A stretch of DNA of 64,000 nt. It comes from a virus (Duplodnaviria > Caudoviricetes). A model generated the notes under the pieces. The model made no database searches and was not told the origin of the DNA. It was given only the letters and a program-made list of their open reading frames with translations. The DNA lies in IMG/VR virus record IMGVR_UViG_3300037249_000287, positions 21,025 through 85,024 of that record; one strand, given 5' to 3'. The position numbers and the translations under genes were made by a program. This document shows positions 16,011-61,966 of this stretch, piece after piece (the stretch's first letter is position 1; every line of letters starts with the position of its first letter).

Positions 16011-16060
16011 ATAACTTAAAAGGATTTGGATATGTTTAGGATATTGTGTATCTTTGCATT

Positions 16061-16133
16061 GTGGATAGGGTGGTTTGGCCACCATCCGATAAAGGGCAAG
16101 TCTGTCGCCCTTTCCACAATTTCAATGACAGAC
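16061..16133 (+). ncRNA. Candidate structured leader, class A (three-way junction plus pseudoknot), copy 1
   Basis: Starts 5 nt after promoter TATCTTTG (16049-16056). P1 GTGGA/TCCAC, P2 GGTGG/CCACC, P3 AGGGC/GCCCT; loop GTCTGTC pairs with GACAGAC 16127-16133. Covaries with the copy at 60655. Confidence 0.65.
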
Positions 16134-16154
16134 ATTATTAAAAGAACAGGCAAT

Positions 16155-16982
16155 ATGACAAAGATGAAACCTTTAGCACAAGTGCTAAAAGAATTTAGAG
16201 ACGTTCATGGTGATAGGTATATCTACACGAACGTCAATGACACAAATTACAGTGGAGGAAAAAGTGTTATTCCTGTTATTTGTAGCAAGCATGGCTTATT
16301 TCCGATACGTGTTGAAAATCATTTACACGGGCAAGGATGCCCTGAATGTGCTAAGATAAAACGCAGAATAAGCAACACTGGCAATGCGCGCAAAAGAACC
16401 AAACTTGTGTACGGTGTTGGCGTAAACGATTATAAAGGAAACACAAAATACAACCATGTACATATACCATCTTATCACACATGGGGGCAAATGCTAAAAA
16501 GGTGTTATTCAAAAGAATTTTTAGATAAACAACCAACTTATCGTGGATGTTTTGTTTGCGAGGAATGGTGGTCGTTCTCAAACTTTAAGAAGTGGTTTGA
16601 CGAGAACTATATCGAAGGGTACAGTTTGGATAAGGATATTTTATTTAAGGGGAATAAAATTTATTCTCCAGAAACTTGCTGTTTCGTACCTAACGAGATA
16701 AACGTTCTATTGTGTAAGAGTGATGCAAAAAGAGGGAAAATGCCAATTGGTGTGTACGAAAGAAAACTTGTAAATGGTAGCAGTTATATGGCATATCTTA
16801 ACAAGAATGGATGTCGTATAAATCTTGGTACATTTTACTCAGTAGAAGAGGCTTTCAAAGTCTACAAGCAAGCAAAGGAAGCCCACATTAAGGATATGGC
16901 AACCCAATACTACAAAGACGGCAAAATCACAAAGAAAGTGTATGATGCCTTAATGAAGTACGAGGTTGAAATTACAGACTAA
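16155..16982 (+). CDS. Free-standing HNH-like endonuclease with N-terminal Zn-finger and C-terminal AP2-like DNA-binding domain
   Basis: CSKHG...GCPEC; LDKDILFKGNKIYSPETCCFVP; INLGTFYSVEEAF. Start moved to ATG 16155 because the track's 43-aa extension overlaps the promoter and leader. Paralog at 60748. Confidence 0.7.
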   Translation: MTKMKPLAQVLKEFRDVHGDRYIYTNVNDTNYSGGKSVIPVICSKHGLFPIRVENHLHGQGCPECAKIKRRISNTGNARKRTKLVYGVGVNDYKGNTKYNHVHIPSYHTWGQMLKRCYSKEFLDKQPTYRGCFVCEEWWSFSNFKKWFDENYIEGYSLDKDILFKGNKIYSPETCCFVPNEINVLLCKSDAKRGKMPIGVYERKLVNGSSYMAYLNKNGCRINLGTFYSVEEAFKVYKQAKEAHIKDMATQYYKDGKITKKVYDALMKYEVEITD

Positions 16983-21900: not shown

Positions 21901-22341
21901 CTATTTATTGTTTATAAATTCAAAAATACCATTCAATGTAGAAATTTTATCTTTTTCTGCAACATAGATTTCACCGCAAAAAACATAATATTCTTTAACA
22001 TTATTCATTATCCAACGCTTTATTATATCTTTTCTAACCCTCAAACCGTTATGCGTAAGTATTTGTTTTAATCGCATAGAACTACACGCATTTGGCAACT
22101 GTTTATTGTAAAGGGGTTGGTATTTGGCTATATATTTCATTTCCATTTCATCCAATTTTTCAGACTTACACTTTATTGTTCTTATAGTGTCAAAGTCCTT
22201 GTCAGAAGGATGGCATAAAATTCTTTTCAAGCCATATTCTGTTTGACCCACATAAACAACTTTTTCGTTTTTCAATAAGAAATAAATACAAGGGAAATAC
22301 ACATCTTGTAATTTGTACTCATAATCAAATTTTTCTTCCAT
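21901..22341 (-). CDS. GIY-YIG family endonuclease-like protein
   Basis: PCIYFL...VVYVGQT...KRILCH...EMKYIAKYQPLYN. Start moved to ATG 22341 because the upstream part is the leader RNA. Confidence 0.7.
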   Translation of the reverse strand: MEEKFDYEYKLQDVYFPCIYFLLKNEKVVYVGQTEYGLKRILCHPSDKDFDTIRTIKCKSEKLDEMEMKYIAKYQPLYNKQLPNACSSMRLKQILTHNGLRVRKDIIKRWIMNNVKEYYVFCGEIYVAEKDKISTLNGIFEFINNK

Positions 22342-22485
22342 ATATGACCGCTTTAAAAGCCTAATGAGCGATTTACTCGTTGCGGTCATTCAACTTTCAA
22401 TCGCCCATCTTGGCAAAAATTGTTATAACATTATCTTTTATCCTTTGCGTCTTAAATGACCGTCAACGCATCGAATGGATTTTCT
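22342..22485 (-). ncRNA. Kissing-loop leader (class B) of the GIY-YIG gene
   Basis: Promoter TATCTTTG 22490-22497. 5' hairpin TGCGT/ACGCA with loop CGGTCATT; 3' hairpin GTTG-AATGACCG-CAAC inside GGGCGATT/AATCGCTC with a GAAA/GAGTA internal loop. Confidence 0.7.
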
Positions 22486-22539
22486 TTTGCAAAGATACTA
22501 CTTATATACCGTAGTTCCAAATATTTTAGTGTTATTTAA

Positions 22540-39740: not shown

Positions 39741-41640
39741 TTGGTTATGGTCTATTGGAGCGCAAGTGAGGCTGAACGGATGCCCGTAGTTATGGATGCC
39801 GTTCTTCAAAAGTATTTCCCCGAAAAGACTTGGGGTGCAATACCTTTGATTAATACTAATGGCGATGTTGAACTTGTCACGATTGACAGGGTTGAATATA
39901 CTGGTGGTGGCAAACATCATGACGAAAGCGAATGGACGCACTATGCCAACATTCAGTTGTACGATGGTGATGTGTGGGAACTCAACGAACAGTTCAAAGG
40001 TAAGAACGAAGACGAGATGTGGATTTATGGCTACTACAAGTCTTTTGGTTCTGCCGTAAGGAATCTTGCAAAGAAAGGAACGAAAGACAGGAAACCGATT
40101 AAAATTTGGATGTGATATGACAAGAGTATTATTATTTGACGCAAACAAAATTGAGCGTCAGGAGTTAGAAGACAAAACAAGCAATGAGCGTTATCAGTTT
40201 GCAATCAATGAATTGAAGACTGGAATCTGTGTGAGTATTATGACGTTGAAAGCCTTTCAGACGCTTTTCAACGAAGGTGTTATTAGTAGCGATTATCTGG
40301 TTTATTTTTATGAGTTATGAAAAATGAAATGAAGTATTTTGTAATTGAAGAAGACGCTGGGTTGTATAACATATTCAGTGTTGACGACTTTGATGATGAT
40401 GGTTACCTTTCTGGCTACAATGGTCAAGACGGCTATCATCGTTCAGATTTTGACATTGTTGCGTGGTTTGAAACGTTTTGTGATGCTGTCAATTGGGAAG
40501 AAGAACATAGTAAGTATTAACAATTAAAATTTTAGGATTATGAAAGATTACGAATGGAACGAAGAATTTCCAACCCAGAAGTCAATTGTCCGTCAGCACT
40601 TGTTAGACGGAAATTCTATCACACAACTTGAGGCTTTGAACCTCTGTGGCAGTTTACGTCTTAGCGCAATCATCTTCAAGTTACGTGAAGAGGGTATGCC
40701 GATTGAGATGGAGCGGTTGCAGGTGTCACATCGCAAACGTGTGGCCAACTATTATCTGCCTAAAGAATACATAGAATCGCTTTCTAAGTGATTTTAAAGC
40801 TTTCTAAGCGCATTTCGTGTGGTTTGCTTGATAGTTACAAGCCGCCACAATTTTAACGGCTTAAAACGAAAAGAAATATGTTAAGAAAGAAAGTTTATAA
40901 GATAAGTAAGGAACGCGCAATAGAACTTGCGATGAATCATAATTGTGTTTCGCGTGAGATTGCAGAAAATTATACAGATAGCGAACTAAGGGAAGTTGTG
41001 TTGCATATAAGTGGTGGCGCAATGTCATTTAAGTTAATTGCAGACTTTTAAAACAAAAAGAAATATGGAAAAAGAATGTTGGTTGTTTACGTTATGGACA
41101 CCGATTGCAGGATATATCAACTGCTGGTATGAATGGTTTCCGTCAAAACAGGAGTTAATTAATGTTTGTCGTAAATTTGGTGACAAAGAAGGATTGTATG
41201 CTATTATCAATGTAACCAAGTTAACAGAAGAACAGTATAACAAACTAACAAAAGACAGTAATGAAAAATAATGAGGTAACTAATTTTATGCTCTACGTCT
41301 ACAACAAGTGGGGCATCAACGAGGCGCATCTATTGTTTGGTAAGAATCTTGGCGACCATATATTTGGCAAGTGGATTGAAAATCGTGGAGACCAGTTGTA
41401 TTGGTATGCGGAACTTGACGAGAGTTGTCGCCAGAAGATAGTTGACAGGGCAAACGAGTTGTATAACAAATAAACAGAAACGATTATGGCATACGTATTA
41501 ACAGACGAACAACTTGACAGAATATGTGAGCGTTCAGCAGGATTATGTGGTAACAACTGCATGAAATGTGAAGCGTTCGCAGCCAACTGGCGGTACAACA
41601 ACGGCTACGATGATGATGATGATAACGAAGAAGAATGGTA
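39741..41640 (+). other. Cluster of small hypothetical genes (39741-40115, 40317-40520, 40540-40791 HTH-like, 41038-41271, 41261-41473, 41487-41640)
   Basis: Packed ORFs. 40540-40791 has SITQLEALNLCGSLRLSAIIFKLR (winged-HTH-like). Confidence 0.55.
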
Positions 41641-54487: not shown

Positions 54488-54598
54488 GGAGGGTTGGCTG
54501 AGTGGTCGAAAGCAAACGGTGGATTATTATGCGTCTCAAATTTTTTCAATAATTCATCGTGGTGCACAACATCGTAGGTTCGAATCCTACACCCTCCG
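54488..54598 (+). tRNA. tRNA-Ser-like RNA with the anticodon arm replaced by a 13-bp hairpin and 19-nt loop
   Basis: Acceptor GGAGGGT/ACCCTCC plus G73; D-arm GCT-GAGTGGTCGAA-AGC; variable arm GGTG/CATC; T-arm GTAGG-TTCGAAT-CCTAC; no canonical anticodon loop; 3' end CAA. Confidence 0.75.
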
Positions 54599-57475: not shown

Positions 57476-57548
57476 TGGGGTATAGAATAACTGGTTAGTT
57501 CACGGAACTTTGGATTCCGTAGTGGTGATTCAACTTCACCTGCCCCAA
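57476..57548 (+). tRNA. trnQ: tRNA-Gln(UUG)
   Basis: TGGGGTA/TGCCCCA acceptor (U1-A72); anticodon arm CGGAA-CTTTGGA-TTCCG; T-arm GGTGA-TTCAACT-TCACC (atypical loop); CCA not encoded. Confidence 0.85.
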
Positions 57549-59734: not shown

Positions 59735-60157
59735 ATGTACGAAATTGTTCTAAACTATGTGGTCGTAAATCCAAAAAACGGCTCAGATGTAAGCAAAAAA
59801 GAAAACCTTATCCTTGAACATGCCGAGTCGTTTGCCGATGCAGAACAGATTGGCTATGACTATGGTAGCGGACTAACGGCTGTTGATGTCGTAAGCGTTA
59901 AGCGTAGCAAGTTGAAGGAAATTGTCAACGAAAAGCCTTTCAACGATGAAACGTGCAAGATTTACGTTGCACAGATTGTTGACCACTTTGTTGACTTGGA
60001 AACGGAAGAAACAAAAGACATCAAGTATTCCGTTGCCTTGTTTGCCCACGACATGAAAGAGGCACACCAAACAATCGAACAATATATGAAACAGGGGCTT
60101 GAAGACATGGATTTGGTAGGTATTAAGGAAACAAAGTTTTCGGGAGTGTTGAAATGA
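59735..60157 (+). CDS. DUF4494-like protein
   Basis: AESFADAE...VKRSKLKEIV; AHDMKEA...IKETKF duplicated fold. Confidence 0.65.
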   Translation: MYEIVLNYVVVNPKNGSDVSKKENLILEHAESFADAEQIGYDYGSGLTAVDVVSVKRSKLKEIVNEKPFNDETCKIYVAQIVDHFVDLETEETKDIKYSVALFAHDMKEAHQTIEQYMKQGLEDMDLVGIKETKFSGVLK

Positions 60158-60618
60158 AAAGATTTGGTGTAGGACATAGCAACAGTAAGTACGGCTCAAG
60201 TAAGGTTGAGTTCAAAGGCATGGTCTTTGATTCAAAGTACGAGGTACAAAGATACATATACTTACTTGGATTACAGCAACAAGGAAAGATAAGTGGTTTG
60301 CGCAGACAAACGCCTTTCTTGCTTATTCCAAAGGCTACGAAACTTGTGGCGAAACAACTTAAAACAAAAGTAAAGTACGTTGAACGTGTTGTGGAAATGC
60401 AATCACTTTATCACAACGACTTTACTTACATTGAGGATGGTAAATACATCTGCGAAGAGTTTAAGTCTGCCATGACATCAAAACTTGCTGACTATATCCT
60501 GCGCCGCAAACTTATGGTACAGAAGATTTACAAGCATAACCAAAAAGGTCGCTCACAATGGGTGTTTCGCGAGGTTGTGTATTATAATAAAAAGAAAACA
60601 ATAATAACAGATAAATAA
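60154..60618 (+). CDS. DUF1064 family protein (putative PD-(D/E)xK nuclease/resolvase)
   Basis: SKYGSSKVEFKGMVFDSKYE...ISGLRRQTPFLLIP...YHNDFTY...EEFKS. Confidence 0.75.
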   Translation: MKRFGVGHSNSKYGSSKVEFKGMVFDSKYEVQRYIYLLGLQQQGKISGLRRQTPFLLIPKATKLVAKQLKTKVKYVERVVEMQSLYHNDFTYIEDGKYICEEFKSAMTSKLADYILRRKLMVQKIYKHNQKGRSQWVFREVVYYNKKKTIITDK

Positions 60619-60654
60619 TTTGGATAATTCAAAATAATTTCGTAACTTTGCAAC

Positions 60655-60728
60655 GTGGATAGGTGGAGGTAATTGACCACTGACAAGTGTAAGCCGAAAG
60701 CACTTCCACGTTTTTCAATCTTTCGGCT
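60655..60728 (+). ncRNA. Candidate structured leader, class A, copy 2
   Basis: Starts 5 nt after promoter TAACTTTG (60643-60650). GTGGA/TCCAC, GGTGG/CCACT, AGTGT/GCACT; loop AGCCGAAA pairs with TTTCGGCT 60721-28. Confidence 0.65.
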
Positions 60729-60747
60729 AACTTGATTTCGGTAATAT

Positions 60748-61335
60748 ATGGCAAACGTAAAAAAGATTTTATTTGGTATTGGGGTAAATGATTACGAATA
60801 CCCAATACAAAGTAATGGTGTTATGTTGACTTCGTATGCTAAATGGAAGTCTATGCTGCAACGGTGTTACAGTGAGAAATATGTTAATAGACGTAAATGT
60901 TATGTTGGATGTTCTGTGTGCGACGAATGGTTGCGCTTTTCAAACTTCAAAAGGTGGTTTGATAAAAATTATGTAGAAGGATATTATTTAGACAAAGACA
61001 TCTTAGTTAATGGAAATAAGGTGTATAGCCCAGAAACATGCTGCTTTGTTCCACATGAGATAAATGAACTAATAGAAACCCGCAAAAATAAAACAAATAA
61101 GTTTTATCAATGCGTAGAGATTAGCAAAAACGGAAAATTTCGTGCAAGGATAAAAAGATATGGACGTAGGGAATACTTGGGCACTTTCAATACACCCGAA
61201 GAAGCGTTCTATGCCTATAAAGAGGCGAAGGAGGCATACATAAAAGAGGTCGCCACGAAATATTACAACGATGGGAAGATAGCAAGAAACGTCTATGAGG
61301 CGTTGATGAATTATAAAGTGGAAATAACAGATTAA
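60748..61335 (+). CDS. HNH-like endonuclease with an AP2-like domain (paralog of 16155)
   Basis: GIGVNDY...WKSMLQRCY...CDEWLRFSNFKRWFD...LDKDIL...YSPETCCFVP; both paralogs end VEITD. Confidence 0.7.
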   Translation: MANVKKILFGIGVNDYEYPIQSNGVMLTSYAKWKSMLQRCYSEKYVNRRKCYVGCSVCDEWLRFSNFKRWFDKNYVEGYYLDKDILVNGNKVYSPETCCFVPHEINELIETRKNKTNKFYQCVEISKNGKFRARIKRYGRREYLGTFNTPEEAFYAYKEAKEAYIKEVATKYYNDGKIARNVYEALMNYKVEITD

Positions 61336-61345
61336 ATATATAATT

Positions 61346-61966
61346 ATGCTGAATTACAGAGACACGCAAAACGCCTTGCATGTAAGGCTTGTGGATTTTA
61401 CACTACAGGAGTATTTGTTTGTACTCCAAGTAGTTCTTGAAGAGGACATTCGCGTTGCATACGCAAGTGTGTTCGATACGTCTGAATTTAAGAGAAATGT
61501 GCCGTCCGAAGACGAGGAAGAATATTTGGCTCAATTCCAAAAGAAAGCCGAAACTTTGCTTGAAACACAGAATTGTGTTCACCTGAAAGAATACTTAGAG
61601 ACAGAATACCAAAGAGATATTCAAGAGCAAGCAAGTTCTCTTGAAGAGTTTCATTTTACAGGTGCTGACGTGCAGAAGATACTCAATAACTTATTGAGAG
61701 ATAGAACATTAGACCTCTCAGAGAGTTCTGTCAAAGACATCACCAGCATCCTAAAAATGATGTATGAAAATGGGTCTCTTGATTCGGGCGACAGCTTTCA
61801 ACGTCATTGGATAACAATACCTGCCAAGTTTAATATTTTGTGCCCTCAATGTAATCGTGAGGGTTACGCGGTTGAAGGTCTTGACTTCCGTTGCGAGTTC
61901 TGCGGTTGCACTGCAAGATGGGATGAAAGCCAGCATCGCTACTTTCCAAACTTGGGACACCTTTAA
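61346..61966 (+). CDS. Hypothetical protein with a C-terminal zinc ribbon
   Basis: CPQC...CEFC. Confidence 0.6.
   Translation: MLNYRDTQNALHVRLVDFTLQEYLFVLQVVLEEDIRVAYASVFDTSEFKRNVPSEDEEEYLAQFQKKAETLLETQNCVHLKEYLETEYQRDIQEQASSLEEFHFTGADVQKILNNLLRDRTLDLSESSVKDITSILKMMYENGSLDSGDSFQRHWITIPAKFNILCPQCNREGYAVEGLDFRCEFCGCTARWDESQHRYFPNLGHL

Follow-up and report, generated by a model that had tools for sequence, protein, structure and literature searches.

Alternative pairing that frees or hides the start region in front of selfish nuclease genes is a known principle of gene control. The expression platforms of the SAM-II and preQ1-II riboswitches hide the ribosome site in a pseudoknot. Stem-loop I of the ColIb-P9 repZ (IncI-alpha) system forms a pseudoknot beside the rep start and is accompanied by the Inc antisense RNA. 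In the exonuclease-resistant RNAs of flaviviruses (xrRNAs), a three-way junction is closed by pairing of the P3 loop with the strand lying just 3′ of P1. Among phages, structures that sequester the ribosome site control the homing endonucleases I-TevI, I-TevII, I-TevIII, mobE and probably segB (PMC3014915). In these leaders of T-even selfish nucleases (those of Aeh1 mobE and T4 segB included), one leader strand is complementary to the initiation region, and the presumed purpose is to limit or time synthesis of the nuclease (PMC3014915), as it would be at the locus described here. Free-standing homing endonucleases are dangerous passengers, and how they are restrained in phages outside the T4 group is largely unknown.

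The DNA analysed here (the window) is a 64,000-nt stretch of a Caudoviricetes virus record of 85,024 bp, which has direct terminal repeats and is rated 100% complete; its clamp protein matches only distant uncultured gut-phage contigs (identity ≤39%). A covariance-model search of this genome found exactly two copies of a structured leader, copy 1 at window positions 16059–16133 and copy 2 at 60653–60728 (Table 1). An earlier note, made by reading the sequence without database searches, had described both as a pseudoknotted three-way junction in front of paralogous AP2-type endonuclease genes, and every string that it listed stands at its position in both copies. The string GTGGATAGG(N)TGG occurs in the window only at 16061 and 60655 (0.01 expected by chance), and the two copies also share TCCAC-N-TTTCAAT (16113 and 60705). 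One further match to the latter string, at 41375 (−), was set aside as chance: it is embedded in other sequence, without the remainder of the motif. Between the copies, P3 (AGGGC/GCCCT versus AGTGT/GCACT) and the loop–tail pairing (GTCTGTC/GACAGAC versus AGCCGAAA/TTTCGGCT) differ in their letters and keep their pairing, the latter ending 21 nt (ATG 16155) and 19 nt (ATG 60748) upstream of the start codons. We refined the register of P2 in copy 1 to 7 bp (GGGUGGU/ACCAUCC).

Both copies begin 5 nt past a TAnnTTTG box (16049–16056 and 60643–60650). Going by the Bacteroides −33/−7 consensus, we take these boxes to be promoters. TAnnTTTG abuts the model start in 18 of 24 loci that had been chosen without the promoter pattern, and lies a few nucleotides upstream in 3 more. 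The two downstream proteins are indeed paralogous (53% identity, E 5e-72); both match phrog_953 ‘HNH endonuclease’ (E 1e-74 and 1e-76), one of them with a weak AP2 match in addition.

Table 1 Leader and gene features in the window (window coordinates)
Feature	Position	Strand	Evidence or remark
Copy 1 presumed promoter, −33-like TTTG	16025–16028	+	sequence
Copy 1 presumed promoter, −7 box TATCTTTG	16049–16056	+	sequence, Bacteroidota type
Copy 1 three-way junction	16059–16119	+	82–112 bits with models R1–R3; covariation
Copy 1 P1	16059–16065/16113–16119	+	
Copy 1 J1/2 UA	16066–16067	+	
Copy 1 P2	16068–16087	+	loop with UGGCCA at 16076–16081
Copy 1 J2/3 GAUA	16088–16091	+	
Copy 1 P3	16092–16112	+	loop L3 at 16098–16106
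Copy 1 U-rich linker UUUCAAU	16120–16126	+	
Copy 1 site A GACAGAC	16127–16133	+	pairs with L3 GUCUGUC (pseudoknot, ‘decoy’); 8-bp run including one G-U
Copy 1 site B ACAGGC	16146–16151	+	6 bp with L3 including one G-U; ends 3 nt before ATG 16155–16157
Gene behind copy 1	16155–16982	+	275-aa AP2-type ‘HNH endonuclease’ (phrog_953), N-terminal zinc-ribbon-like module
Copy 2 presumed promoter, TTTG	60619–60622	+	sequence
Copy 2 presumed promoter, box TAACTTTG	60643–60650	+	sequence
Copy 2 three-way junction	60653–60711	+	R2 40.3 bits, R3 63.7 bits
Copy 2 P1	60653–60659/60705–60711	+	
Copy 2 J1/2 UA	60660–60661	+	
Copy 2 P2	60662–60681	+	loop AGGUAAUUGA; UAAUUG self-complementary with wobble
Copy 2 J2/3 GACA	60682–60685	+	
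Copy 2 P3	60686–60704	+	L3 at 60691–60699
Copy 2 linker	60712–60719	+	
Copy 2 site A CUUUCGGCU	60720–60728	+	pairs with L3 AGCCGAAAG; 9-bp run, no G-U
Copy 2 site B UUUCGGU	60736–60742	+	7 bp including one G-U; ends 5 nt before ATG 60748–60750
Gene behind copy 2	60748–61335	+	195-aa AP2-type endonuclease paralogue

Protein-guided retrieval yielded 74 loci, and the motif lies upstream of the closest ones; at locus L043 the sequences of P1, P2, P3 and the pseudoknot are all different and the architecture is the same. We built the covariance models R1, R2 and R3, searched whole related contigs as well, and scanned viral, metagenome and prokaryote-genome collections with an unbiased promoter–junction pattern, the matches of which were filtered by the models; an initial, broad DNA pattern had given mostly chance among the matches listed, and a tighter one was adopted. 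Alignment A6, the final one, comprises 76 matches (70 distinct) with scores of 35–90 bits, and none of them is on the reverse strand. The family therefore comprises at least 70 distinct sequences, which come from viral and metagenome contigs; its carriers are uncultured phages of gut and rumen. About one-third of the pattern matches in viral contigs were true motifs, whereas representatives of 185,579 prokaryote species gave 109 pattern matches and 80 scored loci with a single true motif, so that the family is essentially phage-borne. That sole prokaryote match (L562:1–41, −) runs off the end of a contig of 2.2 kb that was binned into a Bacteroidaceae MAG; it hints weakly at the host group. 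Among 50,697 records of cultured phages, blastn with both loci matched only short pieces of nuclease coding sequence.

Variants of the locus with 85–99% identity are present in contigs of four bovine-gut runs from one study (labelled metatranscriptomic, probably DNA). These differ at window positions 16093, 16040 and 16150; the frequent A>G at 16093 changes a P3 pair, for which loci L041 and L077 compensate on the other strand. The summed depth of the bovine-gut contigs peaks over the leader, which is what sharing of the leader among many related phages would produce.

The motif belongs to no catalogued RNA family. Searched with Rfam 15 at the gathering threshold, the whole window gave two tRNAs only. 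One is a normal tRNA (57476–57548); the other match to the tRNA model (54488–54598, 42 bits) has about 42 additional nucleotides where the anticodon arm should be. At E values up to 10, the best match of the two copies was to a plant miRNA model (22 bits against a gathering threshold of 80); we regard the miRNA matches and a weak ‘drum’ match (18 bits against 43) as noise. The same cmscan search of 18 other motif loci gave nothing at the motif, and neither these nor the two window copies matched int-alpA (RF02996) at E values up to 10. Nor did searches of the literature turn up an account of this leader motif.

Comparison across the 70 distinct homologues established the fold. In A6, 89.6% of cells form standard pairs, as against 45–58% when the partners are slid by 1–3 columns; 18 of 20 pairs have changed on both sides (310 cells), and the covariation score was reached by none of 500 shuffles. 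A 50-sequence alignment gave the same result. All three helices covary, and the upstream regions of homologous genes thus do share the pseudoknotted three-way junction that had been proposed from two copies. By contrast, single-sequence minimum-free-energy folding (z −2.1 and −0.6) was uninformative because the pseudoknot competes with the nested helices, which is why comparative analysis was needed. P1 has 5–9 bp and closes with an A-U pair; J1/2 is UA in 71 of 71 sequences; P2 (5–8 bp) opens with a G-Y pair; J2/3 reads GAUA or GACA in 66 of 71. P3, with 4–6 bp, opens with an invariant A-U followed by G-C or G-U and abuts the 3′ strand of P1 with zero nucleotides between them. The loop of P3 (L3) often opens with (U/C)AAG, and a U-rich linker follows P1 on the 3′ side; in 39 of 48 sequences a UUU occurs no more than 6 nt from P1. 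The unpaired bases of the junction are conserved, as the earlier note had said.

A compact, pseudoknotted element beside mobile nuclease genes might be a self-cleaving ribozyme, or a signal at the DNA level such as an endonuclease target or a recombination site. At L087:1450–1500 and L147:1460–1500, a truncated copy of the motif precedes the leaders of replication initiators. It consists of the promoter TTTGCA, the 5′ strand of P1, UAGG, a short loop and the 3′ strand of P1, and points to recombination within leaders or to a tandem duplication there. In leaders of this type the real promoter is about 45 nt farther upstream than usual. The hint at recombination that these copies give would speak for such readings. 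Yet compensatory changes in four pairings favour an RNA over a DNA site for a protein, and genes other than nucleases also have the motif in front of them. As to self-cleavage, the hammerhead, twister, twister-sister, pistol, hatchet and HDV models give no match at E up to 10, and the lengths and order of the junction strands do not fit the hammerhead core: its CUGANGA, GAA and H joints are not found in order, the joints here being UA, GAYA and none. We consider a ribozyme or a DNA signal highly improbable.

The earlier note had further taken the RNA to be specific to one gene family, which is wrong. The 62 distinct downstream proteins include 27–28 NUMOD4/HNH_3 (I-HmuI-like) endonucleases, 17 AP2-type proteins (phrog_953/374), about 14 DnaD-like helicase loaders or replication initiators, one Bro-N/ANT antirepressor and one plain HNH protein. 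Because one conserved junction stands before unrelated proteins, control by each encoded protein is unlikely. Of the three roles suggested for the junction (riboswitch-like pocket, ribozyme or protein-binding site), the conservation that underlay them holds, and binding of the AP2 protein is unlikely given that unrelated genes are served; the sequence cannot separate the three.

The leader–nuclease unit appears to be optional. The relative G053 carries an orthologue of the gene at 61346 (60% identity) with neither leader nor nuclease upstream, an arrangement consistent with an optional leader–nuclease cassette. We did not accept G053 as a clean presence/absence allele: the neighbouring small ORF differs too, and the boundaries of the cassette cannot be fixed. 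Just upstream of the 61346 orthologues, window 60154–60618 and G053 (L368:1079–1483) hold unrelated small ORFs between conserved flanks, which marks the spot, where the copy-2 cassette also sits, as variable. In another relative, G052, the promoter and the 5′ half of the leader are 82% identical and are followed by a different, longer AP2-type gene. At L277:1082–1125, an intact leader precedes a NUMOD4/HNH gene whose start reads ATA where the close relative L292 has ATG; this copy is possibly dead or alternatively started.

Beyond the fold, two features that the earlier note overlooked, a second site complementary to L3 at the start codon and a palindromic P2 loop, point to a translation switch. 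L3 is complementary to two sites downstream of the junction. Potential pairing of at least 6 bp is found with site A in 68 and with site B in 65 of 69 distinct sequences, and with both in 64, where a 6-bp match with G-U allowed arises by chance at a rate of 18–27% per site, which is not negligible. Site A starts 6–9 nt after P1 in most sequences. From the end of site B to the ATG there are 0–5 nt in most sequences; in others the two overlap. The ATG itself lies 33–39 nt 3′ of P1 in most. Bacteroidota are reported to initiate translation largely without Shine-Dalgarno pairing, and site B holds no Shine-Dalgarno-like word. The L3 seeds comprise more than 20 different words, which conservative single-linkage clustering placed in 13 groups. 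When non-cognate loops from other lineages were used, both sites were matched in about 10% of pairs; at the cluster level, both sites are present in 11 of 13 representatives, compared with a mean of 2.0 and a maximum of 6 in 2,000 permutations. L3, site A and site B thus covary three ways. The close relative L077 has a perfect ACAGAC at the position of site B of copy 1.

Copy 1 contains an AUG in its linker and site A (16125–16127) that is in frame with 16155, has no stop in between and would add MTDIIKRTGN. The relatives L077 and L080 keep it. Its equivalent opens a short uORF in L092, L086 and L099, is absent from copy 2 and L093, and is mutated in L433. Being in frame, a uORF, or absent or mutated depending on the lineage, this upstream AUG was rejected as the true start.

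Part of the likeness between A and B has a simpler origin. In L087 and L099 the two sites lie inside a longer direct repeat (18 nt and about 14 nt, respectively), so that some of it reflects recent duplication and not selection for pairing. Such plain duplications would suit a static fold, one that protects the 5′ end of the mRNA or insulates the cassette without any switching and in which B resembles A by descent only. P1 begins within a few nucleotides of the likely transcription start, and the topology is that of a flavivirus exonuclease-resistant RNA, including the pairing of the L3 loop with the 3′ tail. We nevertheless consider a static fold distinctly improbable. Site B is complementary to L3 across many seed words, through G-U changes and shifted registers, none of which descent alone predicts: in L188, A and B pair with shifted parts of L3, and in W1, L163, L146 and W2 the differences between A and B are transitions that keep G-U pairs, which argues that B is not merely a copy of A. 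Nor was the ring of an xrRNA found: within the transcript, nothing upstream of P1 is complementary to GAYA, and the 5′ end was not seen to pair with the junction.

We think it somewhat more probable than not, judging from the sequence comparisons, that the leader is a cis-acting two-state translation switch, ON with the loop on the decoy and OFF with the loop on the start region. The leader would be transcribed from its own host-type TAnnTTTG promoter, and the three-way junction, with its invariant UA and GAYA joints, would hold out L3 as an ‘anti-start-region’ strand. The compact fold would have L3 on site A, the decoy 6–9 nt downstream of P1, as a pseudoknot; the A/U-rich start region would then be single-stranded and the gene translated. 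On loss of this pairing, L3 would pair with site B and cover positions of about −12 to −1 or the AUG, and ribosome loading would be blocked. Site A is the stronger partner of L3 in 35 of 45 sequences (mean −11.4 versus −9.8 kcal/mol for B), and the start region, 76% A+U, is largely unpaired (0.68) once L3:A has formed. Since A is stronger and transcribed first, ON is likely to be the default state. By the same token, with A usually nearer and stronger than B, nothing observed accounts for the formation of L3:B. It also counts against the switch that a pseudoknot beside a start site can activate translation instead, as in ColIb-P9 repZ. In favour of the two-state switch we count a second, unrelated leader in the same genome (window 22320–22520, −), which lies on another endonuclease-type gene and consists of TAGTATCTTTG followed by two hairpins. 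Its second loop, AUGACCGC, is complementary to CGGUCAU in the loop of the first hairpin and also to GCGGUCAU, which ends 2 nt before the ATG; this leader shows the same decoy-or-start logic. The T4-type leaders give a precedent: as in them, a leader strand complementary to the initiation region is present throughout most of the family.

What might flip the switch is suggested by the genes it serves: a conserved junction before unrelated genes argues for a shared trigger and not for feedback by each encoded protein. The trigger might be some factor of phage or host that all these genes have in common, a small ligand or ion, or RNA–RNA association through the palindromic P2 loop. If a small molecule or ion were bound at the junction, by UA/GAYA and the closing pairs, and stabilized or broke L3:A, the leader would be a classical riboswitch. 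The near-invariance of UA and GAUA/GACA, together with the A-U, G-Y and A-U closing pairs, would fit such a pocket, and the alternative pairing of A and B resembles an expression platform. However, only about six unpaired bases are conserved, the client genes share no metabolic theme that would name a ligand, and no Rfam riboswitch resembles the leader; we hold this reading to be decidedly unlikely.

The P2 loop bears on the third candidate. A palindrome of at least 4 nt is present in 25 of 26 distinct P2 loop types (shuffles average 12.4, maximum 20) and one of at least 6 nt in 15 of 26 (average 3.1, maximum 9), whereas none of 33 L3 loops has a 6-nt palindrome. The 6-nt words include UGGCCA, UAGCUA, UAAUUA, UCAUGA and UUGCAA, and seven cores occur (GGCC, AGCU, AAUU, CAUG, UGCA, CGCG and GUAC), so that the word changes while self-complementarity stays. 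The palindrome is out of register with the P2 stem and is therefore not an extension of it, and no second copy lies nearby in cis.

These loops raise the alternative of a self-contained, RNA-only sensor of dosage or timing, in which leaders would join through P2 loops, or a short leader RNA, ended at the U-tract behind P1, would accumulate, and L3 would pair in trans with site B of another molecule, so that translation would cease with rising transcript number. The excess of palindromes over shuffles and their persistence through change with no partner copy in cis would be expected of it; so would the UUU run right behind P1 if short leader transcripts are made, and the fact that copies in one genome usually differ in both seed and palindrome. 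Six-nucleotide palindromic apical loops dimerise HIV-1 and oskar RNA (PMC7357161). The recurrent loop class AMUUAGUACCC, however, which makes up about one-fifth of sequences, has only GUAC, and 4-nt palindromes are common by chance, so that dimerisation through P2 is a hypothesis and not a finding. Some genomes carry two copies with an identical palindrome, and P1 makes a poor intrinsic terminator, with a branched loop of 55 nt to close. On balance we regard a concentration sensor acting in trans as rather unlikely. If it were true, nuclease and replication-initiator genes would be throttled by the dosage of their own transcript, with neither protein nor metabolite involved, and seed and palindrome would serve as an address by which the several cassettes within a phage are kept distinct.

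Read as the two-state switch in cis, the leader would be a compact, portable control module with its own promoter, a scaffold, an anti-start loop and a decoy. To our knowledge, few translational control RNAs are known for Bacteroidota-type hosts. With specificity residing in three short co-varying words, the mechanism is directly testable by compensatory mutations, and the programmable scaffold could be a design template for gene control in gut Bacteroidota. It could, in addition, be one of the rare natural examples of a dimerisation-type loop in an mRNA leader.

The closest comparisons set these properties in context. The T-even leaders are simple hairpins in hosts that use Shine-Dalgarno pairing and are relieved by a late promoter that starts transcription inside the hairpin. 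In the leader described here, the loop is held out by a conserved three-way junction, and the start region, which has no Shine-Dalgarno-like word, has a decoy as its competitor; the cassette's own promoter precedes the entire fold, and the clients include replication genes. SAM-II and preQ1-II likewise free the start region by alternative pairing of one strand and have a conserved junction and pseudoknot core, whereas in the phage leader conservation is confined to the scaffold, the sequestering strand and both of its targets vary freely, and nothing in the gene context points to a ligand. In ColIb-P9 repZ, a hairpin loop also pairs just upstream of an initiator start and loop–loop RNA contacts set the level of the initiator. 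There, however, the pseudoknot turns translation on, and the rival for the loop is an antisense RNA made separately; in the phage leader the rival is the decoy in cis, with no antisense gene in evidence, and nucleases make up most of the clients. The HIV-1 DIS and the oskar 3′ UTR have the same layout as the P2 loop, an apical loop of 8–9 nt with one or two leading bases and a 6-nt self-complementary word (PMC7357161). DIS-like loops of the family include AG-UAGCUA and AG-UAAUUA-A, and an apical-loop word of about 6 nt stays palindromic through change in 15 of the 26 loop types, the dimer itself being putative; these loops lie in the mRNA leader of a bacterial virus and not in a packaged genome or a localised mRNA, and one loop class has only a 4-nt palindrome. 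The xrRNAs share the topology and no sequence likeness; they lie in the 3′ UTR and not in a 5′ leader, and site B has no counterpart there. Against this background, what is new is the scaffold, the cis decoy, the programmable three-word specificity and the DIS-like loop, together with the extension of start-region control to replication genes in hosts with TAnnTTTG-type promoters.
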